64,000 bases of DNA, taken from contig JAOPTT010000002.1 in assembly GCA_051531975.1 (NCBI GenBank), forward strand, positions 32,001-96,000, in the 5' to 3' direction. This document shows, piece by piece, positions 3,350 through 55,202 of the stretch. The DNA comes from Spirochaetaceae bacterium (lineage in GTDB: Bacteria > Spirochaetota > Spirochaetia > DSM-2461). Each line of letters starts with the position of its first letter. Within the stretch, counting starts at the first letter, position 1. The notes under the pieces were generated by a model. That model was given only the letters and a program-made list of their open reading frames with translations, was not told the origin of the DNA and searched no databases. The translations under genes and the position numbers were made by a program.

Positions 3350-3643
3350 TTAAACACTAAGTTCTATATGATTTTTCTTAATATTATCCTGAAACTCTTT
3401 TGGTAAATCAGCCCAGATAAATAGATCCACTCTAAATGTTATATCACTCTCTTGTAAAGATTCACGAAGATTAAAAACATTATCATTATTATTAGTAAAA
3501 ACAACCATATCTAGATCAGAGTAGTTACTATACTGTTCTGTTATCCGAGAACCATAAACCCACACGACCACATTAGGAATATTATCTTTAATAAGTAATT
3601 TTAATATATTTTGATCTTTTGTAGAGATACCTAATTTATTCAT
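3350..3643 (-). CDS. Minimal nucleotidyltransferase (MNT) antitoxin
   Basis: GSR-x7-SDLD motif (YGSRITEQYSNYSDLD) and VDL. Start moved to ATG 3643, which overlaps the upstream HEPN stop. Confidence 0.85.
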   Translation of the reverse strand: MNKLGISTKDQNILKLLIKDNIPNVVVWVYGSRITEQYSNYSDLDMVVFTNNNDNVFNLRESLQESDITFRVDLFIWADLPKEFQDNIKKNHIELSV

Positions 3644-4049
3644 GATACTCAATAATCTTAGAATATAATAATTTAGCATTTTTTATAAAGTCTTCCATTA
3701 AACCGATAGATTCCAGGGCCTTTTCTCCATTATAGTCGTGGGATGTACTTATTCTGGCACTTGCATAACTAAACCACTGTTCAAGGGAACTGTCTAAAAG
3801 AGAGTTTTCAGCTGCAATTCTAAGTATAGGTTTAGGACTATTTGGAACATCAGGTATACCAAGTTCATGTATAAGATATTTTTTTAACAGCTTCCATAGT
3901 GTATCCCAACATGTCTCAAAACGCTGTATAACAGACTCTTGTACAGCCTCTTGAATCAATATATCCAAAGAGGGGTTAAGTGTTCTATAGTTATTATACT
4001 GTAATTCTAAGTTATTTAATGACTTAATAAACTTACTATAATCAATCAT
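3636..4049 (-). CDS. HEPN protein, HI0074-type nucleotidyltransferase substrate-binding family (putative RNase toxin)
   Basis: IQRFE...WKLLK, SPK and R-x4-H-x-Y (RISTSHDY) motifs; paired with the downstream MNT. Confidence 0.85.
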   Translation of the reverse strand: MIDYSKFIKSLNNLELQYNNYRTLNPSLDILIQEAVQESVIQRFETCWDTLWKLLKKYLIHELGIPDVPNSPKPILRIAAENSLLDSSLEQWFSYASARISTSHDYNGEKALESIGLMEDFIKNAKLLYSKIIEYHE

Positions 4050-4117
4050 AGTTAATGTTACTATCTATTAGAGCTATCGTCTAGAGAAGTTTAAAGCTTC
4101 TTTTTTAAGGGTTATAT

Positions 4118-4414
4118 TTATAACTTAAGAAGCACAGAGCTATTTTCAACTTCTGTGGATAACAGTGAGTCTGAAGAGTGATACTGAACAAAATCAACTT
4201 TTAAATCAAAATCTCTTATTGCTAAATAAGTAATAACTTCTATCCTCTTCTTTTTAAACTCTGCAGAGCTAATGTTTGTATCAATCGCAATATCAATATC
4301 TCCGCCTCTTTTACTATCGTCTACTCGACTACCAAATAGATATATATTGACATCATCAAAATAGGTATTTATAGCATTGACTAGAGTTTTAATAATACGT
4401 TTTGATACTCTCAT
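4118..4414 (-). CDS. Minimal nucleotidyltransferase (MNT) antitoxin
   Basis: YLFGSRVDDSKRGGDIDI motif and KVD; ATGA overlap with the upstream HEPN gene. Confidence 0.88.
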   Translation of the reverse strand: MRVSKRIIKTLVNAINTYFDDVNIYLFGSRVDDSKRGGDIDIAIDTNISSAEFKKKRIEVITYLAIRDFDLKVDFVQYHSSDSLLSTEVENSSVLLKL

Positions 4415-4887
4415 GTTAAATACCTATTTGCAAATTGAATGCTGTTTAGATAATAGAGCTCTATCTTAGAAAAATTATCTATACAAAATTTTAAGTCTTT
4501 TAAAGCTTCAGTAAGGTTTTCAGGATAATCGTGTTCAAGTTCATTTCTAACCTCTCTGAGTTCTATCCAACTGTTTAATGAGTCTATAATTTCTTCATTT
4601 TCGATATTATATAAAACTTCACTCATTTTAGAACTATTAACTCCTGCAACTTCAAGTAGCAGAGGGAATACCTTTGCACCTAAAAAGTCCTGTATAGAAC
4701 TAAATCTCTTAAGATAAGCATCTAAAACAGCTCTATCTGTAACACCTAAAGCTTTGAATATATTAGGTTCATAAATATTAGTAGTAGAAGTCATCTCTTG
4801 AATATAAATATAGTAATCTTTAATAGCGATATAATGTTTCTCTAACTTACCTAATCTTTTTTTAAGAATTTCTTTGCTATTTATCAT
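4411..4887 (-). CDS. HEPN-domain putative RNase toxin
   Basis: DAYLKRFSSIQD...G and W-x2-LREVRNELEHDYP (R-x4-H-x-Y). Likely start is ATG 4887, after a GGGGTG SD-like sequence. Confidence 0.8.
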   Translation of the reverse strand: MINSKEILKKRLGKLEKHYIAIKDYYIYIQEMTSTTNIYEPNIFKALGVTDRAVLDAYLKRFSSIQDFLGAKVFPLLLEVAGVNSSKMSEVLYNIENEEIIDSLNSWIELREVRNELEHDYPENLTEALKDLKFCIDNFSKIELYYLNSIQFANRYLT

Positions 4888-4932
4888 AATTAAAATACAC
4901 CCCAATACCATATTTACAACACATCTATAGGA

Positions 4933-4994: not shown

Positions 4995-5843
4995 TTACCG
5001 CTTTTGTAGTTTGATACATTCTATTTTACTAATTGGTAGTCCAGATATTTTAGATACTTCTTTAATATCCATACCATTGTTAAGCATTTTAACTACTAGT
5101 TCAGTAATTCCTTCCTGACGACCTTCCTGGCGACCTTCCTGACGACCTTTTTCCACTGAAGACTTCTGAATATAGTTATACTCTTTCCTCTTATGCTGTG
5201 CTTCCAGCTCTTCTTCTGTCATTCCAGCTTCATTTACACTATCCAGTGCATCTTTTACATAACAATCAAGGGTTTGTGGTATATACTCCAGACTTCCGGC
5301 ATTCTTAATAAAATATATCCACTGATCCTTAATATTCTCTAATTCTGATAGATCTTTATTAAATTTAGTAAGTTCTATAAATATTAACTCTATATCATCG
5401 GAATACTGTATAAATGAGTCCTTCTCCAATAGTTTAAACCTACTAATAGCATTCTCAGAATCGGGAAACATATTAAAATCAACTATAGTTAATGCAATTA
5501 CAGGGTTTAACAGAGAGTATTCATCTTTTCTTTTTAACTGTAACGAATAATTTTTTGCAGCATTATACAGTATACGTTTCTCAAAACCCTCATGGTTTAA
5601 AACTTGCATCTCTATTATAACTTTCGTTCCATCATCTAATATCGCCTTAACATCTACATATGTATCCTTCATACCCTGAATCATAGGTATATTGTATGGA
5701 TCAACAATATCTAAGTCCTGAATAGACCTACCATTAGGAAAATCAACTAGGGCATTTAAGAAACTAATTAATATTTTTTTATTCTTGGTACTTCCAAAAA
5801 CTTTTTTAAAAGCAAAATCTGTCTTAACATCTAAAAAATGCAT
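4995..5843 (-). CDS. Rpn family recombination-promoting nuclease / PD-(D/E)XK putative transposase
   Basis: DFAFKKVFG, VDVKA...IIEMQ (PD-(D/E)XK with Q), FIEL.KF, C-terminal EGRQ repeats and HTH-like tail. Confidence 0.9.
   Translation of the reverse strand: MHFLDVKTDFAFKKVFGSTKNKKILISFLNALVDFPNGRSIQDLDIVDPYNIPMIQGMKDTYVDVKAILDDGTKVIIEMQVLNHEGFEKRILYNAAKNYSLQLKRKDEYSLLNPVIALTIVDFNMFPDSENAISRFKLLEKDSFIQYSDDIELIFIELTKFNKDLSELENIKDQWIYFIKNAGSLEYIPQTLDCYVKDALDSVNEAGMTEEELEAQHKRKEYNYIQKSSVEKGRQEGRQEGRQEGITELVVKMLNNGMDIKEVSKISGLPISKIECIKLQKR
5110..5149. repeat. 12-bp in-frame tandem repeat x3 (CCTTCCTGRCGA) encoding GRQE repeats
   Basis: ccttcctgacga ccttcctggcga ccttcctgacga cctt seen directly; typical of Rpn C-termini. 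Confidence 0.9.
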
Positions 5844-5900
5844 TTTATCCTCCAGTTAATTATTTAGTAGTAATATTTATATAAATTCAGATAATATGAT

Positions 5901-5952
5901 AAATATTATAGTTTCTTTTTATATTTATTCCCATACATCTCATATAGTATTT
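5901..5952 (-). repeat. Degenerate copy of the rfbB 3' end plus downstream flank (direct repeat of 8362-8414)
   Basis: aaatattatagtttctttttatatttattcccatacatctcat-atagtattt aligns with aaatagtatagattctttttttatctgtttccatacatctcttgatagtattt. Confidence 0.8.
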
Positions 5953-5985
5953 ATAACATCCACTAAAGTTTTAATAATACGTTTT
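5947..5985 (-). pseudogene. 39-bp fragment of an MNT gene 5' end (35/39 match to 4365-4403)
   Basis: Encodes KRIIKTLVDVINT versus KRIIKTLVNAINT in the intact MNT. Confidence 0.8.
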
Positions 5986-6008
5986 CTCCTACCCTTTTGT
6001 GTCTAATA

Positions 6009-7514
6009 TCAAAATTTACTTGCTAAAATAGACCAAAGTTCTTTTGTCTCTAAAAAATGTCTTCGCCACCTTGAGAATACAAGTTCATTATTATCAATTG
6101 ATACAAGAACAAAAAGAGCTTTAAGTACTTTAAAATCAGTCTCATGGTCAATATTTACCCAAGCTTCTTCAGAAAGAGCAATGCTTCGGTGACACAAATC
6201 TATTATTTTTAAAATCTTATCATTACTACTTAAAGGATCAAATGTTTCTTTCAAATATTCAGAATGTTCTTCTGACATCTGTTCCATAGAAGTTGCAAAT
6301 ATTTCAGTATTCTTATAATTTTGATCATCATCAGGAAGGTCCGAGGATATTATATCCATATGATCTTGATGCTCATCTATTATTGTCCCATTCAAATTAT
6401 TTAAAATTTCTTCATTTTTTTTGTGCCATTTATTTACAATATCTCTATAAGTATCTTTTTCTCCAGGATCAAACGAGCTAAAAGCTTCAATTAGTTCAAC
6501 CTGCTCTATAAAATAATTAATATCAGAAGGCTTTCTGTTAAACATAGAGATGATACTAGAAAGTTGATCTTCTACTGTATTCAACTTATTTGAATTTACT
6601 GAAAAATTTAATAATGAAGATCTTTTTTCTATGGGAATAGTAATAAATTTGGAACATAAAAGCTCCAGAAGTTCATCTAATTTAAAAACTTCACTTTTAC
6701 TAAGAACAAAAATTTCAATAACTCTTCTAACATCTTTCAAAACTACCAATGCTTCTTCAATAATTCTTGAAGCACCTATCTGAGTTATAGATTTATAATT
6801 GACAATTTGCGTCTTTAAATTTTCCTCAAAATCATTATTATTAGTGTTTTTATATATAATTTCACTTTGTGTTATATTATCCTCTCTACTTAGAACCTTA
6901 AACCGATTAATAACACTATCAATATTATCATACAAAGGATAAATTCTATCCCATAGCTTTTGTCCATCCATAGTTAGGGGCATCTGAACAGTTTTTTTTA
7001 GAAATCCATTCATCCAATTAACAACTGCTCTGCATTCTGAAGTTGTTATATCCCCTAAAACAAATGCTTTATCCCCAAGTCTATTTTCAATTAAAATAGC
7101 AACGGATAAAATAGCTAGATGATAGGGATACCCTTGTGTTTTACCACCCAATATTTGCGTTCCATTACAATCTACATAAACTAAATCATCTTCGTTAGCA
7201 AAAAGGACATCTTTTGAATTATTAGTAAAACAATGTTTATTGACTTCAAATTTGTAAAGTTCGAATGTTTCAGCCTGTTTCAATGATTTAAGATCACCAG
7301 ATATTTGCCAGTTCTCATCATCCGTTCCTATATTTTCACAAATTTGTTTAGATAATACATACCTTTCATGTCCTGCCACATTGTCCAGTGTCAATCTTAT
7401 TAAATCAACAGGAAAGTTCTTTAGTACTAATTTAGATTCTTCGTAAACACGACTCCACTCTTCCTGAGTAACCCCAGAATCAAAATTAACATATAAATTT
7501 ACAAAAATACCCAT
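6009..7514 (-). CDS. Hypothetical protein (501 aa)
   Basis: Long ORF with a GAGGG SD; soluble; no family recognised with confidence. Confidence 0.8.
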   Translation of the reverse strand: MGIFVNLYVNFDSGVTQEEWSRVYEESKLVLKNFPVDLIRLTLDNVAGHERYVLSKQICENIGTDDENWQISGDLKSLKQAETFELYKFEVNKHCFTNNSKDVLFANEDDLVYVDCNGTQILGGKTQGYPYHLAILSVAILIENRLGDKAFVLGDITTSECRAVVNWMNGFLKKTVQMPLTMDGQKLWDRIYPLYDNIDSVINRFKVLSREDNITQSEIIYKNTNNNDFEENLKTQIVNYKSITQIGASRIIEEALVVLKDVRRVIEIFVLSKSEVFKLDELLELLCSKFITIPIEKRSSLLNFSVNSNKLNTVEDQLSSIISMFNRKPSDINYFIEQVELIEAFSSFDPGEKDTYRDIVNKWHKKNEEILNNLNGTIIDEHQDHMDIISSDLPDDDQNYKNTEIFATSMEQMSEEHSEYLKETFDPLSSNDKILKIIDLCHRSIALSEEAWVNIDHETDFKVLKALFVLVSIDNNELVFSRWRRHFLETKELWSILASKF

Positions 7515-7562
7515 ATATCCCTCATTACAAGTTAATAGTACTACATAATAATAAATATTATA

Positions 7563-7982
7563 TTAAGGAACTATTTTAATACCTATTTCACTACAGAAAG
7601 AAATAATTGATTTATACTCTTTTGTAGCTATTGCTTTTAATATTTCTAGATTAATCTCTTGATATTCATGTATGGCGATATTTCTAAAACCTGTCATACT
7701 AATCATAGATTTGGATACTGAGCTTGAAATGATCGAATTATTACTTAAAAGAGTGAAAGCCTCTCCACTATTCTGAGGTATACCTAAATGTTTTACAGAT
7801 ACTATATGACCAGCTAAGTCGATTACAGCTTGGCAAGCTCTCTCAATATTTAAAATCATGGCATCAACATGTGTAAAATTATCCAGACTAGGATTAGATG
7901 AAAATTCTTCTAACATACGCCGAAGAGATCTCTCAATTATGGCACCTTTATTAAAAATAATATTATCAGGCTCTATATGCAT
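7563..7982 (-). CDS. hepT: HepT family HEPN RNase toxin (DUF86)
   Basis: ERACQAVIDLA.H and MTGFRNIAIHEY (R-x4-H-x-Y). Confidence 0.92.
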   Translation of the reverse strand: MHIEPDNIIFNKGAIIERSLRRMLEEFSSNPSLDNFTHVDAMILNIERACQAVIDLAGHIVSVKHLGIPQNSGEAFTLLSNNSIISSSVSKSMISMTGFRNIAIHEYQEINLEILKAIATKEYKSIISFCSEIGIKIVP

Positions 7983-8358
7983 CTAATATCTCCTTCCGAT
8001 CAATATTAAGTTGAAAATACATTCCTATAAGTGATGAACTATAAATATCGCACTTAGAGACATCTTTTTTATAGATACTTTCACCTCTAAAAAAAGCTTC
8101 GGCAGCATAAACAAGATTCTTAGATGATAATATACCAATATCAACAGATCTACCTAATAAAATCTCTAATTCCCCAGACAAAGTGACTTTATCAAAAGAA
8201 GAAAATTCACAACCATTCTCAAAAAGAATAGCAAGATCTATATCACTATCAGATCTCATTTCACCTCTATAAGCACTTCCAAGAAGATAAACTCCTAAGA
8301 TTCGATTATCATTAATAAAATGAGCTGTAATAATATCTCTAATTTTATCTACATTCAT
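7966..8358 (-). CDS. mntA: MntA family adenylyltransferase antitoxin
   Basis: GS-x10-DxD motif (GSAYRGEMRSDSDID) and GRSVD; directly upstream of and overlapping hepT. Confidence 0.92.
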   Translation of the reverse strand: MNVDKIRDIITAHFINDNRILGVYLLGSAYRGEMRSDSDIDLAILFENGCEFSSFDKVTLSGELEILLGRSVDIGILSSKNLVYAAEAFFRGESIYKKDVSKCDIYSSSLIGMYFQLNIDRKEILDAYRA

Positions 8359-8365
8359 ATTAAAT

Positions 8366-8394
8366 AGTATAGATTCTTTTTTTATCTGTTTCCA
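8366..8394 (-). promoter_or_regulatory. Putative promoter TGGAAA-N17-TATACT, 7 nt before the mntA ATG (leaderless-type)
   Basis: Spacing counted by hand; no SD before mntA; the -35 box lies inside the rfbB-tail repeat. Confidence 0.5.
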
Positions 8395-8450
8395 TACATC
8401 TCTTGATAGTATTTTTGGTAATCTCCACCTGCACCCTCATATACCCACCA
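8382..8450 (-). pseudogene. Orphan copy of the last 22 codons plus stop of rfbB (59/69 nt identical to 10867-10935)
   Basis: Translates WWVYEGAGGDYQKYYQEMYGNR* versus WWVSEVASGDYQKYYQEMYGNR* in rfbB; ungapped alignment. Confidence 0.92.
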
Positions 8451-8494
8451 GCATTTCTATTAAAAAAAAGCTTAAATAGTTATGTCTTTCACTG

Positions 8495-9757
8495 TTATAA
8501 AGTCTCATCGGATTCAGGCAGAACCGATTTGATATCATAAACAACACAATTCTTATTTTTGTAATTTTCAAAGTTTATATCTATAAACTTATTATGTGCA
8601 ACAGCAAGAATTATTGAATCAAACTTATTAGAAGATTTTAGTTCTGATAACAGATCTAAATTAAATGCTTTTTTTACATCATTGGCACTAGCCCAAGGAT
8701 CATAAACTGAAACATTACAACCAAACTCTTTTAGCTCTTTTATTATATCAATTACCTTTGTATTTCGAATATCAGGACAATTTTCTTTAAATGTAATCCC
8801 AAGAACTAATACTTTGGAATCCTTAATTGTATGTCCTTTTTTTATCATTAATTTAATGACCTGGTTCCCCACATAGAAACCCATCTGATCGTTAACTCTA
8901 CGACCTGCTAATATAATTTGTGGGTGATACCCTACTTCTTCAGCTTTATGGGTTAAGTAGTATGGATCGACACCTATACAGTGACCACCAACTAAACCAG
9001 GTTTAAAAGGAAGGAAGTTCCACTTTGTACCAGCTGCTTCTAAAACATCTTTGGTATCTATGTTCATTTTATTAAAAATCAGAGATAGTTCATTTACAAA
9101 TGCAATGTTTATATCTCTTTGGGAGTTTTCAATTACTTTTGCTGCTTCTGCAACTTTAATTGAGGGCGCAAGATGAGTTCCTGCAACAATAATACTCTTA
9201 TATAGATCATCTACAACTTTTCCAATTTCCTTGGTAGAACCACTGGTTACTTTTTTTATCTTTGTAACAGTATGTTCTTTATCTCCTGGATTTATTCGTT
9301 CAGGGCTATAACCACAGAAAAAATCTGTATTGAATTTTAATCCAGAATAAGCCTCTAAAACAGGAACACAATCCTCTTCGGTGGCACCTGGATATACTGT
9401 ACTTTCATAGATAACAATATCATCTTTTTTTAAAATCTTTCCAATTGTCTCACTAGCTTTAATTAGTGGCGTTAAATCGGGTTTTCTATTTTTATCTATA
9501 GGAGTTGGAACAGTTACTATAAATATTTGGCAATCTGCAATATCGCTGGTATCACAAGAAAATATCATACCATTGTTTAAAGCTTCCGATACTTGTTCAC
9601 TAGATAGTTCAAGGGTTTTATCAAGACTAGAATTAAGTTCTTTAATTCTAGTTTCAGAAATATCAAAACCAACTACTGAATATTCTGAAGAAAATGCGTG
9701 AGCTAAGGGCAATCCAACATATCCTAAACCTATTATACAAATTTTACTTTTTTTCAT
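8495..9757 (-). CDS. UDP-N-acetylhexosamine 6-dehydrogenase (TviB/WbpO-like)
   Basis: GLGYVGLP, ESTVYPGATE, SPERINPGD, GGHCIGVDPYY, TFKENCPDIRN. Confidence 0.9.
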   Translation of the reverse strand: MKKSKICIIGLGYVGLPLAHAFSSEYSVVGFDISETRIKELNSSLDKTLELSSEQVSEALNNGMIFSCDTSDIADCQIFIVTVPTPIDKNRKPDLTPLIKASETIGKILKKDDIVIYESTVYPGATEEDCVPVLEAYSGLKFNTDFFCGYSPERINPGDKEHTVTKIKKVTSGSTKEIGKVVDDLYKSIIVAGTHLAPSIKVAEAAKVIENSQRDINIAFVNELSLIFNKMNIDTKDVLEAAGTKWNFLPFKPGLVGGHCIGVDPYYLTHKAEEVGYHPQIILAGRRVNDQMGFYVGNQVIKLMIKKGHTIKDSKVLVLGITFKENCPDIRNTKVIDIIKELKEFGCNVSVYDPWASANDVKKAFNLDLLSELKSSNKFDSIILAVAHNKFIDINFENYKNKNCVVYDIKSVLPESDETL

Positions 9758-9786
9758 TTTAATCCACCTAACTATAATTTATTTAT

Positions 9787-10845
9787 TTATTTATTTATTT
9801 TAAAAAAATCTAAATACCAGTCTACAAAATTATTAACACCAACTTTAATAGATGTAGAAGGTTTATAACCTAAATCATCAACTAAATCTGTTACATCAGC
9901 ATATGTTGCTGGAACATCCCCAGCTTGCAATGGCATAAAATTCTTTTTAATTGGTATTTCTAATTTCTCTTCTATGGCATCAATAAAATCTAATAACTTT
10001 ACAGGGTTATTATTTCCAATATTATATATTTTATATGGAGCAGATGATGTGGAACTTTTTCTATTATCTCCAGTCCATTTTTCGTCTTTTTTAGCAGGAT
10101 TTTTAATAACTCGAAGAATACCTTCTACAATATCATCTATATATGTAAAGTCTCTTAGCATGTTTCCATTATTAAAAACATCTATAGTTTTACCTTCTAA
10201 TGCTGCCTTTACAAACAGAAACAGAGCCATATCAGGTCTACCCCATGGTCCATAAACTGTAAAAAATCTTAGCCCTGTAGTTGATATTCCAAAAAGATGG
10301 GAGTATGTATGAGCCATAAGTTCATTTGATTTTTTTGATGCCGCATACAGAGATATTGGATGATCAACACTTTCATCGGTACTAAATGGTAGACCTTCAT
10401 TAAGTCCATAAACAGAAGATGATGAAGCATAAGATAGGTTTTTAACATCAAAATTTCTACATGATTCTAATATATTTAAAAAACCTGTTATATTTGAATC
10501 TATATATGCTTCTGGATTAGTTAAAGAGTATCTTACACCAGCTTGAGCAGCTAAATTACATACAGCATCAAATTTTTCTTCTCTGAACAGAGTCTCTAAA
10601 TTAACTTTATCTTCTAATTTTAATTTTATAAATCTGTAATTTTTATCAGTTTTAGATTCAATTATTTTATTGTAATCTATGGATTTTGAATCTATACCTG
10701 CTCGATCCAGACGACCATATTTAACATTTATATCGTAATAGTCATTAATACAATCTAAACCAACAATATTAAAATCTTCTGCTAATAACTTTTTAACTAA
10801 ATGACTACCAATAAAACCAGCAGTTCCAGTAACTAATATCTTCAT
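9787..10845 (-). CDS. UDP-glucuronate 4-epimerase (NAD-dependent epimerase)
   Basis: GTAGFIG, NLAAQAGVRYS, YAASKKSNE, RFFTVYGPWGRPDMA. Confidence 0.9.
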   Translation of the reverse strand: MKILVTGTAGFIGSHLVKKLLAEDFNIVGLDCINDYYDINVKYGRLDRAGIDSKSIDYNKIIESKTDKNYRFIKLKLEDKVNLETLFREEKFDAVCNLAAQAGVRYSLTNPEAYIDSNITGFLNILESCRNFDVKNLSYASSSSVYGLNEGLPFSTDESVDHPISLYAASKKSNELMAHTYSHLFGISTTGLRFFTVYGPWGRPDMALFLFVKAALEGKTIDVFNNGNMLRDFTYIDDIVEGILRVIKNPAKKDEKWTGDNRKSSTSSAPYKIYNIGNNNPVKLLDFIDAIEEKLEIPIKKNFMPLQAGDVPATYADVTDLVDDLGYKPSTSIKVGVNNFVDWYLDFFKINK

Positions 10846-10866
10846 ATTTTATATCCTTTTGTGAAA

Positions 10867-12078
10867 TTATCTATTTCCATACATCTCTTGATAATATTTC
10901 TGATAATCACCACTAGCAACTTCAGATACCCACCACTGGTTATCTAAATACCACTGTATTGTTTTTTTTATACCAACAGTAAAGGGAGTTTCAGGATAAA
11001 AACCTAACTCTTTTACTGTTTTAGTAGGATCAATTGCATACCGTGCGTCGTGACCAAGTCTATCTTGTACATATGTAATTAAGTTATATGAACAATCGGC
11101 ATAGCTCACTGTTACAAAGTCTGAATATTCAGGTTTAACAACTCCATCGATAAAAACTAGCTCTCTAACAATATCAATTGTCTGTTTTACAATATTGATA
11201 TTTAACTCTTCGTTAAATCCACCAATATTATATGCTTCTGTTAACTTTCCTTTTCTAATTACCATATCGATACCTTTACAGTGATCGTCTACATATAACC
11301 AGTCCCGAACTTGTTTACCATCTCCATAAACAGGTAGTTTTTTACCAGATAGTATGTTTTTAATAATAAGTGGAATTAGTTTTTCAGGAAAATGAAAAGG
11401 ACCATAGTTATTACTACATCTAGTTACATTAACTGGAAAATGATATGTGGCAGCATATGCCCGAACTAACATGTCAGCTGCAGTTTTAGATGTGGCATAA
11501 GGTGATCTTGGTTTCAGCGATGTCTCTTCTGTAAAAAACTCAGTTCCAAATGCTTTTGGCATTACGTATCTATCTTTTAAAACTGATTTTAAGGCATCGT
11601 TTGTAGCTTCTAAAGTTATTCCATCTGGTATATCTTTTTCTAGATCTCCATATACTTCATCAGTAGATACCTGTAAAAACTTCTTACCAGAGATAAAAGT
11701 AGGATACCCTTGTTCATCTTTGCCATTGCTCCAGTGATCTTTTGCAACGTCCATTAAGGTTTGAGTACCAATTATATTAGTTTTTAAAAAGATACCTGGG
11801 TCTTCAATTGATCTATCAACATGGGATTCTGCAGCAAAGTTTACAACAGTATCAATATCATGGCTCATAAAAATATTTTCAACTAATTCACTGTTACAAA
11901 TATCACCTTTATAAAAAGAGACACGACTATCAGCTATATCTTCTTTAATAGTTCCTAAATTACCTGCATATGTTAATTTATCTAATATAATTACTTTACA
12001 ATCTGAGTGTTTGTTAAGTATGTATTTTACAAAGTTTGCTCCGATAAAACCTGCTCCACCTGTTACTAAATATTTCAT
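10867..12078 (-). CDS. rfbB: dTDP-glucose 4,6-dehydratase
   Basis: GGAGFIG, AAESHVDRS, VSTDEVYG, RCSNNYGP, RDWLYV. Confidence 0.95.
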   Translation of the reverse strand: MKYLVTGGAGFIGANFVKYILNKHSDCKVIILDKLTYAGNLGTIKEDIADSRVSFYKGDICNSELVENIFMSHDIDTVVNFAAESHVDRSIEDPGIFLKTNIIGTQTLMDVAKDHWSNGKDEQGYPTFISGKKFLQVSTDEVYGDLEKDIPDGITLEATNDALKSVLKDRYVMPKAFGTEFFTEETSLKPRSPYATSKTAADMLVRAYAATYHFPVNVTRCSNNYGPFHFPEKLIPLIIKNILSGKKLPVYGDGKQVRDWLYVDDHCKGIDMVIRKGKLTEAYNIGGFNEELNINIVKQTIDIVRELVFIDGVVKPEYSDFVTVSYADCSYNLITYVQDRLGHDARYAIDPTKTVKELGFYPETPFTVGIKKTIQWYLDNQWWVSEVASGDYQKYYQEMYGNR

Positions 12079-13486: not shown

Positions 13487-14357
13487 AATGAGACTCCTTG
13501 GCTATTAGATTCAGATATTTACCATAATTATTTTTTTTATACTTATCTGCAAGAACCAACAGTTGATCTTTATCTATAAATCCCATTCTATAAGCTATTT
13601 CTTCTATACAAGCTATTTTTAATCCCTGCCTATCTTCTATTAATTTAACATAGTTAGAAGCTTCTAATAGAGAGTCATGGGTTCCAGTATCAAGCCAAGC
13701 GTGACCTCGACCCATTATAGAAACACTAAGATCACCTCGTTTTAAATACTCCTGATTAACAGTAGTAATCTCAATTTCACCACGTTTTGAAGGTTTTACA
13801 TTTTTTGCGATTTCAATAACACTATTATCATAAAAATATAGACCAACAACAGCATAATTTGATTTTGGATTAGTAGGTTTCTCTTCTAAAGAGATAGCTT
13901 TACCAGCTTTATCGAACTCAACAACACCATATCGTTCTGGATCCTGAACATAGTAACCAAAAACCTCAGCACCACTTTTTAATTTAGCAGCATTTTGTAA
14001 CATAACGGAGAGTTCATGACCATAAAATATATTATCGCCTAGAACTAGACATACATTATCTGATCCAATAAATTCAGCACCTATAATAAATGCTTCTGCT
14101 AATCCATTTGGTGCATCTTGTATCTCGTAAGAGAACTTCATTCCTAAAGCACTACCATCTCCTAATAGAGACTCAAACCTAGAGGTATCCTCTGGTGTTG
14201 ATATTATTAAAACTTCTTTTATCCCTGCTAACATTAAAGTTGATAATGGGTAGTAGATCATAGGTTTATCGTAAACTGGTAATAACTGCTTACACACTGT
14301 CTCTGTCGCGGGATAGAGTCTAGTTCCACTACCACCTGCTAATATAATTCCTTTCAT
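13476..14357 (-). CDS. rfbA: Glucose-1-phosphate thymidylyltransferase
   Basis: [43 protein letters not shown]; start set at ATG 14357. Confidence 0.96.
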
Positions 14358-15136
14358 TTTATCCCCTTTATAAACCAAGTTATGATTGTATCCATTCTTC
14401 TTTTAAAAGATCCTGGTATATTTACTTTATATCCCAGTACTTTTTTAATCTCAGGTTCTTCTTTTATCTCTGCTAATGCATAAAATATTAGTTTATCGTC
14501 ATAATTATATATAATAAAATTTGCTCTCTGCCCCTCTTCTTCTATTGCTTTAAAAAGAGATAAAACTGTCATATTGGTTAAGTTTTGCATCTGCAACCAG
14601 ATAGTATCAGAAGTTGTCTTTGTCACTAACTTGTACTTATTAGACCCAAATGTACTATCTTTTTGGTAATAATACATAACTTCTTTCAATGGTAATGATG
14701 TAGCTATTGGATCAGGTAGTTTTTTCTTTAAGTTTTCACCTAAATAATAAGATTTTTTAATAAGTGGATACATTTTTTTTCTGTTAGATGAATAATACTC
14801 TAAACCTTCTTGTTTTGAGAATGCCCGAATATTATTTAATAATGTAACCATCAGATCACTTTCTGGGATATTAGGTTTATCAAAAACAAATAACATCTCT
14901 ACACATAGTTCTGGATCATATTGCTTAATAGTATTGATAATATCATCGGTTAATTCCATCCCTACCGGTAGTAGCTCAAATCCATTTTTATAATCAACTC
15001 TTAATCTATCAGTATATTTCCCTTCTTCTAATCGCCTAATGTCAGTATCAGTTAAACCTGGAATAACAGTTTTCCAACTATCTGCAGCTAAATTGAGTGT
15101 AATAAAAGTTAAAGTTATTAAAATAATCTTATTCAT
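14354..15136 (-). CDS. Secreted spirochaete protein, DUF6675-like
   Basis: Signal peptide; [13 protein letters not shown] and QKDSTFG motifs; paralog of 16339-17133. Confidence 0.6.
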
Positions 15137-15138
15137 AA

Positions 15139-16302
15139 TTAATCCCTTTTATACAGGTCTCTAGTATAAACTTTATCCTCTACATCAGCTAAATCTGAAC
15201 ATAGTCTATTTGTAACAATGACATCGGAAATATTTTTAAAATCGGATAAAGATTTTATTACTTTAGAATGGTAAAATTCATCATCATCAAAAGTGGGCTC
15301 AAATATAACTACAACGATACCTTTTGCTTTAATTCTCTTCATTATACCCTGAATTGCAGAAGCTCTAAAGTTATCGGAATCCATCTTCATGGTAAGTCTG
15401 TATATTCCAACAACAGATGGGTTTTTACTTATTATCATATCTGCAATGTGGTCTTTTCTGGTTGTATTTGCATCAACAATTGCACTTATAATATTATTAG
15501 GTACATTGTTGTAATTAGCCCGTAGTTGTTTGGTATCTTTTGGTAGACAATAACCTCCATAACCAAAGGAAGGGTTATTATAATGGTCACCTATTCTTGG
15601 ATCTAGACAAACACCTTCTATAATCTGCTTACTATTTAAACCTCTATGCTCAGCATAGGTATCTAACTCGTTAAAATATGATACTCGAAGGGCTAAATAT
15701 GTATTAGAAAAAAGTTTAACAGCCTCTGCTTCAGTACTATCTACAAATAGAGTATCTATATTCTCTTTAATAGCACCTCCTGCTAATAGTCCAGCAAATA
15801 CTTTAGCACGTTCTGAAATCTCACCTACAATAATTCTAGATGGGTGTAAGTTATCGTATAAAGCACTACCTTCTCTAAGAAATTCGGGGCTAAAAATTAT
15901 ATTATTTGTATTAAACCTAGCATTTACAGATTTGGTATAACCAACAGGAACAGTAGATTTAATAACCATAGTTGCTGTAGGATTTATAGCTAATACATCT
16001 TCTATTACACTTTCGACAGTAGAAGTATTAAAATAGTTTTTCTCTTCATCATAATCAGTAGGAGTCGCAATAATAATATATTCTGCATCAGCATACTCAG
16101 CTTTATTTAAACTTGCTTTTAAATTAAGGTTACCACTTGCTAAATATTCAGAGATTTCTTTATCCACAATTGGAGATTTCCCACTATTAATTAATTCAAC
16201 TTTAATTGCATCTATATCTACTGCTACAACTTCATTATTTTGTGCTAATAAAACAGCGTTTGATAATCCTACATATCCTGTTCCAGCTATACAAATTTTC
16301 AT
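15139..16302 (-). CDS. ugd: UDP-glucose 6-dehydrogenase
   Basis: [39 protein letters not shown]. Confidence 0.95.
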
Positions 16303-16338
16303 CTTATTATCTCCTGTACCACTTAATGTTCTTTTATG

Positions 16339-17133
16339 TTATTTTACTCTTCTAATATACCATTTTGCAATAGAATCCATTCTTCTCTGAAAAGAGTATG
16401 GAATATTTACCTTGTATCCTAATATACTCTTAATTTTAGGTTCATCTTTAATCTGTGCAATAGCATAAAACAGTACTTTATCACCTATTGGGTGAACTAT
16501 AAAGTTAACTCTTTGTCCTCCAGCATCTAAAGCTTTAAAAAATGTATAAACTTTTAACTTTCCTAAATTTTCCATCTGTAACCATATTGTTTTTGAAGTT
16601 GTATTAGTTGTTAACTTATACTTATTAGCTCCAAAGGTAGTATCTTTTTGATAATAAAAATCTTCCTGTACTGGAATAATTGAGTTATTTACTGGATCAG
16701 ATATAGTTTCTTTACTATTAGGATCAGATATAAAAAAAGAATCCTCAACTAAAAGTGACATAGCCTGCTTTCTATTAGAAAAATATTCTATACCAACTTG
16801 TTCTGAAAATGCTCTTAAATTATTAAGTAGATACAACATATAATCATCTGATGATGAAAAAGTCTTAGTAGGCTTATCTAATAGATATAACATCTCGACA
16901 CATAGTTCAGGATCATAATTTTTAATGTCTGCTAAAAAATCGGCAGAAATATCTATCCCAATAGGTAATAAACTTAAACCTTTAGAATAGTCAATCCCAG
17001 ATTTTACAACAAACTCACCACTTTCTAAAGTAGAAACATCGGAGACACTTGCTCCTGGAACCAAACTTTGCCAATCAGTTGCACCAATATTTATACATAA
17101 TAATAAACTAATAACTGTTAATAAAAATTTCAT
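16339..17133 (-). CDS. Secreted spirochaete protein, DUF6675-like
   Basis: Signal peptide; shares [24 protein letters not shown] and [14 protein letters not shown] with 14354-15136. Confidence 0.6.
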   Translation of the reverse strand: MKFLLTVISLLLCINIGATDWQSLVPGASVSDVSTLESGEFVVKSGIDYSKGLSLLPIGIDISADFLADIKNYDPELCVEMLYLLDKPTKTFSSSDDYMLYLLNNLRAFSEQVGIEYFSNRKQAMSLLVEDSFFISDPNSKETISDPVNNSIIPVQEDFYYQKDTTFGANKYKLTTNTTSKTIWLQMENLGKLKVYTFFKALDAGGQRVNFIVHPIGDKVLFYAIAQIKDEPKIKSILGYKVNIPYSFQRRMDSIAKWYIRRVK

Positions 17134-24784: not shown

Positions 24785-24978
24785 TCCTTGCCCTCTTTAT
24801 ATCATAATATATTTTAATTAATAATAAAACTTTCATCTGAACTTAATTATATTACTAAGATACTTTATCAAGATAAAATTAACAATATATTAACATGATA
24901 TGATACTGTAAATCTTAAGTTGTTTAACAACCCATTAAAATAGCATATTATCATTATATGATTAACTAATAAAATATT

Positions 24979-25746
24979 GTAACCCTCAATTATATAAGGG
25001 TAGCATAATCCTGACGATCTCATCTGGAGTGATATTCCAAGATTCTAAGAGCTCTATACCTTAACCTTCCTCAAATAGATGAGTTTTTCAAATAGCCATC
25101 TAAGACAAGCATAAGAATTTATAACATTCAACTTCACTGTATCAATTAAATAATAATAAATACACATTGAATCTGGACTCTCAGTACTTCCAGCGAATAA
25201 GAAGTTTCATTTGCCACATACAGTACCATTTCTATCCCAATTGATACATTCTAGTGTTTTCTTGTATCTCCTACAAAAAAAGGAAAAGACTTATTAATCA
25301 GGAATCCAGGACCATTTATTCTTTAGTAAATATAGTTATACCATTTATCTGTTCTCTAATATCCGTAATTCATGGTCTTACTAATATAGAAATCTATAAG
25401 AAATCTATAAGAAATCTATTATCATCATAGAACCTCTTAAATAACAGTAATTAGTTAAATTATTTTATCTAGTGACATAGTTTCTGGTATTTCCAATTTG
25501 ATTTGATTGATAGTAATTTGTATGTTTCCGACTGTTAAAATTTGCTTTAATGGTAATTTAATTAATTTATGTACTTTAGTCACAGATGTATTGAAGTTTC
25601 AAACCTAGTCAATAAATGCGGTGGCTTTAAAATCCAAGACCAATCTTTTCCACTCATCGTGACTTTTGTTACTTTTCATATTGCTTCTAGATCTAGAGGG
25701 TAACTTTAGTTTAAATTATTTAATGAGTGGTTTAATTTACGGTGAC
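24979..25746 (-). mobile_element. Decayed, internally deleted IS66-family element (tnpA, tnpB and tnpC remnants, both terminal IRs)
   Basis: IRs GTAACCCTCAATTA (24979, +) and GTCACCGTAAATTA (25746, -). Minus-strand remnants: TnpA MKSNKSHDEWKRLVLDFKA...IQITINQIKLEIPETMSLDKII (25679 to about 25425); TnpB VRP*ITDIREQING...LFLFC...WDRNG (about 25425-25212); TnpC C-terminus LFAGS...LIDTVKLN..NSYACLRWLFEKL...WNI (about 25200-25000). Confidence 0.88.
25388..25420. repeat. 11-bp tandem repeat x3 (AGAAATCTATA)
   Basis: Seen directly; lies in, and disrupts, the 5' end of the IS66 tnpB remnant. Confidence 0.9.
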
Positions 25747-26036
25747 AACCAAGTTGCAATAAATAGTGGGAAGGTTTGTTTTTGATCCACAACAATTGAC
25801 CTTATCTCTTCTGATTATTGTATGATTCTTGTTAAGTTACTTTATTTTTTGTACAATATTACATACGAAACATCCAGTATTTACTTGGGTAATATACAAT
25901 TATTGTCTAAAATAATTAAAGAGTTACTTGTTAATGTTTTTCAGCAAAGTTGGTTTTAACGAATAATGTTCATTTTTGTCATTCTTAGAGATAATTAAAC
26001 TTAGTAAAAATATTTAATAAGCCAGTCTTAAAGAGG

Positions 26037-54286: not shown

Positions 54287-55138
54287 TTATTTATTTTTCG
54301 AAACCTTAATAGATTTAACTTCCTGTACAGTTAATTTGGTAGTTTTTGCAATAAGTTCTACAGGTAAATTTTCTTTTAACAATTCTAAGGCTATAAGTTC
54401 TTTTTCTTGTTCTCGACCTTGTTTTAATCCTTTTTCGATACCTTGTTCCACTGATGACTTCTGGATATAATTATACTCTTTTCTTTTATGCTGGATTTCT
54501 AGTTCATCCTCGGTTAAACCAGCCTCATTAACACTATCTAAAGCCTGAATTACAGTTGGATCAAAATTAGTGGGAACATATTCTAAACTACCAGCATTTT
54601 TTAAAAAATATATCCATTGATCTTTAATATCTTCTAAATCATCTAATTGATTTGTAAATTTAGGTAGTTCAATAAAAATAAGTTCTATATCGTCAGAGTA
54701 ACTAATAAAGGACTCTTTTTCTAATAGTTTAAATCTATTAATAACCTCTATTGATTCTGGAAACATTTCAAAATCAACAATTGTTAAAGCGATAACAGGG
54801 TTTAATAGAGTATACTCATCCTTTCTTTTTAGTTGAATAGAGTAATTTTTTGCAGCATTATAAAGTATTCGTTTCTCAAAGCCCTGATGGTTTAGAACCT
54901 GCATCTCGATAATAACTTTAGAATTATCATCTAGTACTGCTTTTACATCTACGAAAGAATCTTTCATACCTTGTAACATAGGAATATTATATGGGTCTAC
55001 AATTTCTAAATCTTTTATTTGTCTATTATTAGGAAAATCAACTATTGAATTTAAAAAACTAATTAATATTCTTTTATTCTCTACACTTCCAAAAACTTTT
55101 TTAAAAGCAAAATCTGTTTTAACATCTAAAAAATACAT
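54287..55138 (-). CDS. Rpn family recombination-promoting nuclease / PD-(D/E)XK putative transposase (paralog of 4995-5843)
   Basis: Same motifs as the other copy (DFAFKKVFG, IIEMQ, FIELPKF); different C-terminal tail. Confidence 0.9.
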   Translation of the reverse strand: MYFLDVKTDFAFKKVFGSVENKRILISFLNSIVDFPNNRQIKDLEIVDPYNIPMLQGMKDSFVDVKAVLDDNSKVIIEMQVLNHQGFEKRILYNAAKNYSIQLKRKDEYTLLNPVIALTIVDFEMFPESIEVINRFKLLEKESFISYSDDIELIFIELPKFTNQLDDLEDIKDQWIYFLKNAGSLEYVPTNFDPTVIQALDSVNEAGLTEDELEIQHKRKEYNYIQKSSVEQGIEKGLKQGREQEKELIALELLKENLPVELIAKTTKLTVQEVKSIKVSKNK

Positions 55139-55202
55139 AAAGCCTCCTATATTGATATATGAATAAACTAAATATAAATTCAGATTATATGCTAATAATT
55201 TA

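Follow-up and report, generated by a model that had tools for sequence, protein, structure and literature searches.

Why should the end of a sugar gene recur twice behind the gene itself? The question is raised by rfbB, the last gene of an rfbACDB cluster in a 64,000-nt stretch of a Spirochaetaceae genome (assembly GCA_051531975.1, contig JAOPTT010000002.1, positions 32,001 to 96,000; hereafter the window). An earlier note on this DNA described three copies of the rfbB 3′ end, one live and two orphaned, with gene blocks between them, and proposed an integron-like hotspot whose orphan copies form promoters. Here, we find all three copies as described and read them differently. The two orphans, copies B and C, are probably the ends of other rfbB alleles, displaced as foreign DNA bearing an rfbB 3′ part recombined by homology into the resident gene.

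Several observations underlie this reading. The orphans are allele-like, they vary in length, and they bound gene blocks without a linked recombinase. Moreover, one orphan of another spirochaete genome lies where two of its relatives have the live end.

Orphan ends in the window and in other genomes

Copy B repeats the live end, copy A, without a gap at 59 of 69 positions (BLAST E = 2.9e-16 against the 5.46-Mb genome; positions in Table 1). All 5 differences in the last 15 codons, stop included, are silent, and the preceding 8 codons hold 2 silent differences and 3 amino-acid changes (S>Y, V>G and S>G). In total 7 of the 10 differences are silent, and silent sites make up 16% of the stretch. 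Neutral change would give such an excess with P = 2e-4 when sites are counted and P = 0.02 when third positions are counted. Because its differences from the live end are mostly silent, B is the end of another, working allele, as the earlier note supposed, and one that has begun to decay. Two of its three changed residues are well conserved among homologues (V or I in 156 of 158, S in 126 of 158).

Copy C is more decayed and carries B's post-stop flank. It aligns with 8361-8414, across B and its flank, at 46 of 54 positions with one gap (E = 7.9e-10 genome-wide); against A alone, C matches weakly (E = 0.13). Its left side joins a 39-nt scrap of an MNT gene through 6 nt, AAATAC, common to the rfbB tail and the scrap, at this one joint. 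The scrap, overlooked in the earlier note, has its relative in the gene at 4118-4414. One assembled piece from the source sequencing run covers 5793-11235 with zero differences; that run probably comes from the same sample as the window, and the agreement checks the assembly only.

The most telling array lies in G624, a spirochaete of another family, whose live rfbB is followed by four orphans of about 270, about 156, 144 and 477 nt. They bound AlbA/RecG, MNT-HEPN, AAA-DUF4143 and AbiE blocks, and three of the four are rich in silent differences (silent to changed codons 31:15, 12:7 and 41:15). G632, of the same genus and with an RfbB 96.6% identical to that of G624, has one block and one orphan, and its AbiE pair stands directly behind the live rfbB. 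Over 1261 nt, its live end, flank and AbiE block are 96.6% identical to the third orphan, flank and block of G624. The short state and the flank recur in G671, which belongs to another genus, at 82%. What is an orphaned unit in G624 thus adjoins the live gene in G632 and G671. The simplest reading of these sequences is that G624 gained three blocks (4.1 kb) behind its live rfbB, ahead of the AbiE block, and that these displaced the old end. The rfbB genes of G632 and G624 are also mosaic, with 89-90 of 90 positions alike per compared segment in the centre, 78-85 of 90 elsewhere and 68 of 81 at the end. A centre alike and a divergent end fit crossovers inside the gene.

The congener G001, whose RfbB is 86% identical to that of the window, carries rfbACDB at 76% DNA identity with other sugar genes behind it, and the genes behind its rfbB differ from block A of the window. 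A decayed orphan rfbB end of 106 nt lies 7 kb downstream, in a region with many scraps of rfbD, rfbA, manC, rpn and ATPase genes and with toxin-antitoxin pairs. A G+C-richer repeat of 110-150 nt occurs three times at gene-scrap junctions of this congener (L032 7490-7665, 9447-9597 and 17081-17215), and two weaker copies lie in the window's own genome at G000:C2:524709 and 526592.

Among 14 other spirochaete loci, one (G015) has an internally deleted second rfbB copy. In Fusobacteriota, a 165-nt orphan stands behind an AAA_21 block (G072), a 1198-nt copy behind methylase, GmrSD and HEPN genes (G096), and an internally deleted copy behind Abi, OLD, UvrD and ToxN genes (G091). G075 has a second full rfbB gene. 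The displaced near-full copy of G096 (L243 7723-9480) is an in-frame fusion to a preceding uracil-DNA-glycosylase domain, 585 aa in all. Contents behind rfbB therefore differ among the relatives compared, several of which have orphan ends, and an invariant gene order was not seen. The serial pile-up of sugar, toxin and defence blocks behind rfbB, claimed earlier for the window, is borne out here, and the layout recurs in G001, in G624 and in several Fusobacteriota.

With the last 46-47 residues as query, matches were found in 137 of 190 Fusobacteriota genomes (at least 150 matches), in 199 of 401 spirochaete genomes (orphan cases were drawn from the matches listed), in 61 of 122 genomes of one order and in 151 of 401 genomes of the class (the matches listed were examined in part). 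The loci examined were listed close double matches or short open frames, and G751 alone from the class search. Protein queries overlook decayed ends, missing both G001's orphan and copy C, so that array counts are lower bounds. The rfbB-end layout is rare, at a few in a hundred.

Several candidates were set aside. G422 has a frameshifted single gene, G254 and G070 have separate clusters, and G104 has a decayed piece with no adjoining live gene. The double matches of G062 and G063 come from a reverse-transcriptase insertion, group II intron-like, at one rfbB residue. In these two genomes (L237 2397-4860 and L238; L239 and L240), rfbB is split at residue 347/348 by a reverse-transcriptase/HNH element, twice per genome.

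Orphan ends are not special to rfbB in this genome. A survey of its 3488 genes found same-strand orphan ends at a distance of 0.5-20 kb downstream for 12 of them and upstream for 1 (p = 0.003); with looser criteria, an initial survey counted 18 and 3. Internal gene scraps in the main survey numbered 7 downstream and 5 upstream, and none nearby was inverted. The other anchors include a DEAD/DEAH helicase gene, with a HigB-type pair as cargo, hisS, and genes for a peptidase, a sulfatase and an AraC regulator. A tiled survey of 160 foreign loci (1471 genes) gave 3 such matches, all in one locus. A hotspot peculiar to the rfbB end is thus not supported in this genome.

Proposed displacement by homology and its alternatives

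In the proposed mechanism, incoming foreign DNA that carries the 3′ part of rfbB followed by further genes of its own would pair with the resident rfbB. It could enter by a RecA-type single crossover of a circle made of the rfbB 3′ part and cargo, or by a homologous crossover at one end and a microhomology join at the other. The outcome would be the whole gene, the new block, and then the old end with its old flank. The newest blocks would stand nearest rfbB, with a C-type unit arriving first, then block B (mntA-hepT and the 501-aa gene) and then block A. The MNT scrap shows that there was at least one further join or deletion, so this history is not unique. Later deletions would trim the orphans. 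Only end-bearing fragments would survive, since these keep rfbB whole, and the toxin-antitoxin cargo may slow the loss of old blocks. Each block would come with a predicted promoter of its own, located in the post-stop flank. The genome encodes both RecA and ComEC.

Several points weigh against this reading. Orphans of 69 or 33 nt at about 85% are short for RecA, and a longer or closer original overlap must be assumed. Of 7 junctions measured, 6 have the rfbB or MNT scrap starting no more than 60 nt from a cargo stop codon, a closer spacing than random breaks would lead one to expect. A like-for-like survey of the genome in 21-kb tiles had a weaker bias, with 9 ends downstream and 5 upstream. 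The end of G632 is equally like the live end (125/144) and the third orphan (124/144) of G624 and was assigned to the latter by flank and cargo alone; blocks may have been lost in G632 and G671 instead of gained in G624.

The surveys add to these points. No orphan end stood beside any of 80 distant genome rfbB loci (70 with at least 2.5 kb downstream) or of 56 usable metagenome rfbB loci (of 80). The source-run contigs, which drop rare forms, held no circle or alternative joint. The pre-insertion state of the window locus was not seen and no close strain of the species was found, the best metagenome RfbB (81%) lying on a sequence that ends before the gene end. No orphan-end match came from two further congeners, whose genomes are 71% and 81% complete, and no genome was found with the window's own blocks attached to a live rfbB. 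A test for decayed 5′ and clean 3′ sides in 8 orphans (p = 0.03) was left unused, being inflated by alignments into unrelated DNA; the two longest orphans had no slope.

A site-specific recombinase in trans, be it tyrosine, large serine or integron integrase, might instead insert at a fixed rfbB point, with deletions blurring the ends; we consider this unlikely. Tandem islands do leave displaced gene ends (PMC3146451), the genome does encode a true integron integrase, and the junctions lie close behind cargo stop codons. A comM/yifB-type gene (G000:C6:150725-168522, L225) has two displaced 3′ parts, one beginning 858 nt and the other 843 nt from the gene end, and is perhaps a fixed insertion site. 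However, the rfbB orphans start 33, 69, 106, 144, ~156, 165, ~270, 477 and 1198 nt from the end of the stop codon. This range argues for no fixed att-type site, and a single fixed point would need much trimming. No common motif was seen by eye at 15 left edges.

The search for such an enzyme was likewise negative. No tyrosine or serine recombinase was found on the window's contig, C2 (own genome 98% complete), or on the array contigs of G624, G632 and G072 (five other genomes searched), and the whole genome yielded no large serine recombinase. Copy B had no match among 50,697 phage records, and the exact tail pattern had none in viral or metagenome contigs. The one 'plasmid' match of B proved to be an intact Fusobacterium rfbB.

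The integron case can be followed further. The integron integrase model TIGR02249 scores above its cut-off solely on another contig, C8, and not on C2. C8 holds a chromosomal integron (G000:C8:31744-40590, L231) with attC sites of about 110 nt. A hidden Markov model built from 4 of these sites gave 19 matches at E<=1 in the genome, none of them on C2. Matches of attC type lie also on C3, C5, C22 and C25, and one on C22 adjoins the displaced hisS end. Copies A-C have fold energies of -0.03 to -0.09 kcal/mol per base versus -0.12 to -0.22 for true attC. Given the varying orphan lengths, the absence of a linked recombinase and the lack of attC character in the copies, the array is neither an integron nor an array of att-type islands. 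Hence, of the earlier proposal, the recurrence of integration holds in the serial blocks behind rfbB and the lack of a linked integrase extends to the whole contig, but the 'site' in the att or integron sense and the integron-like nature do not hold.

It is similarly improbable that whole rfbB genes or rfb clusters arrived or were duplicated in tandem with cargo and that deletions spared only the end abutting a toxin-antitoxin promoter. Equally doubtful is its corollary, that the left edges of the orphans are deletion end points and not recombination junctions. The near-full or internally deleted second copies in G096, G091, G015 and G075 would suit such a history, as would the congener's orphan rfbD, rfbA and manC scraps and the position of B and C directly before toxin-antitoxin-type genes. 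Yet it still needs homologous entry at rfb, and so differs from displacement by homology only in timing. The four clean in-frame orphans of G624, which lie 1-58 nt past the cargo stops, would call for a precise deletion in each case, and the neighbours in many of the 12 cases across the genome are metabolic rather than addictive.

Local duplication within one genome and free of horizontal transfer, the copies being decaying junk or kept promoters, is very improbable. The flank common to B and C would agree with it, as a B-type unit was duplicated or arrived twice. However, neutral decay gives mostly amino-acid changes, not 7 of 10 silent, and in its last 15 codons B shares 4 of 5 silent states with the congener's orphan and not with either live gene, although these sites are few. 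As to kept promoters, the -35 matches are at chance level.

Scarcely credible is capture driven by the neighbouring Rpn nuclease, which is reportedly linked to RecA-independent transfer in the title of one paper (PMC5350276) and whose gene lies behind C and, in many copies and scraps, in the congener's region, since no Rpn is among the six proteins inside the G624 array. Rpn is, moreover, described as a toxin-antitoxin defence system, not a transposase (PMC10400941).

Genes and promoters of the locus

All genes between 2126 and 24784 lie on the minus strand, in the order rfbA-C-D-B, epimerase, TviB-like dehydrogenase, mntA-hepT, 501-aa gene, rpn and four HEPN/MNT-type genes (Table 1). The earlier gene calls stand, with RfbB, MntA, HepT and Rpn above their cut-offs and the TviB-like protein narrowly below that of NCBIfam (572 of 592 bits). 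The 403-aa RfbB shares 74% identity with Fusobacteriaceae proteins and about 50% with proteins from other genera within its family, a closer likeness that suggests cross-phylum transfer.

Table 1. Features of the rfbB array and its surroundings, in order from the anchor gene
Feature	Position	Strand	Basis or match
rfbB, dTDP-glucose 4,6-dehydratase, anchor gene, last of rfbACDB	10867..12078	-	TIGR01181 429.7 bits, cut-off 365.1
Copy A, live 3′ end of rfbB	10867..10935	-	
Block A: NAD-dependent epimerase (9787-10845) and TviB-like nucleotide-sugar dehydrogenase (8495-9757)	8495..10845	-	Pfam, NCBIfam
44-nt spacer from dehydrogenase stop codon to copy B	8451..8494	-	no significant genome match elsewhere
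Copy B, 69-nt orphan, rfbB end of another allele	8382..8450	-	
Post-stop flank of B with TATACT at 8366-8371, 7 nt before mntA ATG; predicted leaderless toxin-antitoxin promoter	8359..8381	-	
mntA (7966-8358) and hepT (7563-7982), putative type VII toxin-antitoxin pair	7563..8358	-	NF047752, NF047751 above cut-off
501-aa protein, small unnamed family with invariant KTQGYPYH motif	6009..7514	-	6 relatives at 28-54%
MNT-gene scrap, 39 nt of 5′ part, fused to copy C	5947..5985	-	35/39 to 4365-4403, E 1.8e-8
Copy C, decayed rfbB end (33 nt, 5921-5952) with ~21 nt of B-type flank, TATAAT at 5905-5910	5900..5952	-	
rpn	4995..5843	-	TIGR01784 above cut-off
Four HEPN-/MNT-type genes (4411-4911, 4118-4414, 3636-4049, 3350-3679), distal stack	3350..4911	-	Pfam for 3 of 4

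The adjacent mntA and hepT genes have both the GSx10DxD (MNT) and Rx4HxY (HEPN) motifs by which the type VII HepT/MntA system is defined (PMC7641770), and adjacency and motifs together assign the pair to this type. The 501-aa protein has no Pfam, PADLOC or NCBIfam family match and no fold match at E<=0.001 with a model of middling quality (pLDDT, predicted local distance difference test, 64.5), and its look-alikes are annotated solely as 'hypothetical'. In the distal stack, Rx4HxY is found in 4411-4911 and 3636-4049, and 4281-4725 has a 69% homologue behind the rfb cluster of the congener.

The rpn gene together with about 59 nt of upstream DNA matches a paralogue at 54287-55138 (76% over 5145-5902). 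With the upstream DNA common to both, the two paralogues (4995-5902 and 54287-55195) bracket the whole 49-kb polysaccharide locus, and near the C-terminus of the first stands a four-residue repeat, GRQE, in three copies. At 14354-17133, a UDP-glucose dehydrogenase gene stands between two DUF6675 paralogues (46% amino-acid identity), a full-length order of gene, cargo and gene copy. A 1.25-kb gap at 24785-26036 has no minus-strand open frame of at least 60 codons.

The claim that the orphan copies form promoters does not hold. The hexamer pairs are present as written (8389-8394 with 8366-8371, and 5928-5933 with 5905-5910), but no more than chance would give. A promoter scan counted 68 promoter-like sites versus 64.4 ± 8.9 in shuffles, and the site of copy C does not pass it. 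The -35 box is neither above chance nor tied to the tail, as a match of at least 4/6 occurs at 15% and of at least 3/6 at 52% of 20,000 random positions. The single RNA run from the same sample covers almost none of the stretch.

The -10 boxes tell another story. Across 2625 genes, TATAAT and TATACT peak 6-7 nt before the ATG, in 60 and 32 genes over a background of 3-20, which we infer to be a mark of leaderless genes. About 110 long genes of the genome have one of the two there, and leaderless transcripts appear common in this spirochaete. The same box precedes three other MNT genes of the genome, and the congener's mntA homologue has it with no rfbB end ahead. The best promoter of the G624 array (12/12) is confined to the sequence after the stop codon. 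Since the -35 match is at chance level, the -10 box occurs at other MNT genes and at an mntA homologue that lacks an rfbB end, and the G624 promoter is post-stop, the predicted promoter is best ascribed to the cargo unit, and the rfbB tail need supply nothing.

Meaning and known systems

The pile-up of defence and toxin-antitoxin genes at integrase-free chromosomal spots has so far been mostly inferred, and here each step leaves a readable scar. A trio of genomes with short and long array states makes the order and source of blocks traceable, the gain of defence genes is tied to a polysaccharide locus in two phyla, and the circle model of rhs arrays becomes testable on an ordinary metabolic gene. 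As a tentative and rather speculative extension, the rfbB 3′ part may serve as a cross-lineage, integrase-free landing pad. Blocks with rfbB ends at their borders would excise as circles and enter any related rfbB through host recombination. One event would then both reshape the surface-polysaccharide (phage receptor) locus and stack anti-phage and toxin-antitoxin modules, which would ratchet the array against loss. The mechanism is known in kind, about a dozen such patterns occur in the genome and the promoter-making claim fails; we found no description of rfbB/rmlB end arrays in the open-access literature, subscription journals and supplements being outside our scope.

Integrons have the newest unit nearest the anchor, compact units and toxin-antitoxin cargo. 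The rfbB array resembles them in all three but is without attC or a linked intI, and its boundaries are copies of coding sequence. Tandem site-specific islands, such as those at Dehalococcoides ssrA (PMC3146451), likewise stack foreign blocks behind a restored gene. These have a fixed insertion point and an integration module, neither of which was found here.

In E. coli, single crossovers of recircularised fragments give gene-end duplications of 109-950 bp, and joints of homology-facilitated illegitimate recombination (HFIR) have 3-10 bp of microhomology (PMC3240628). The variable size of the duplications recurs here, and the 6 nt shared at copy C may be a microhomology of this kind. However, those events took place in laboratory conjugation with a perfect homologue, and HFIR proper usually deletes rather than duplicates. 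HFIR was also proposed for the serial displacement in type VI secretion arrays of Vibrio cholerae, where a new module arrives next to a homologous anchor and the old genes and effector 3′ end are shifted back (PMC5361080). That process was likened to integrons with no integrase. There, the old effector is deleted and the immunity genes are kept, whereas here the anchor end is duplicated at each step.

The closest likeness is with the rhs arrays, in which a whole gene is followed by pieces of its end that differ in length, come from other strains and are separated by further genes, with no integrase (PMC2935791). In the model given there, circles are excised by homology between orphans and enter by single crossover. 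The rfbB array is alike in that an intact gene precedes same-strand 3′ fragments of variable length that, from their silent excess, come from other alleles. It differs in that rhs swaps a toxic tip, whereas here the protein sequence of the anchor's end is preserved and the change lies in the free-standing cargo downstream. The anchor is RfbB and not an Rhs or polymorphic toxin with a swapped tip and immunity gene. By analogy, the rfbB array thus appears to work like rhs C-terminal displacement, at a metabolic gene and not as an rhs member.

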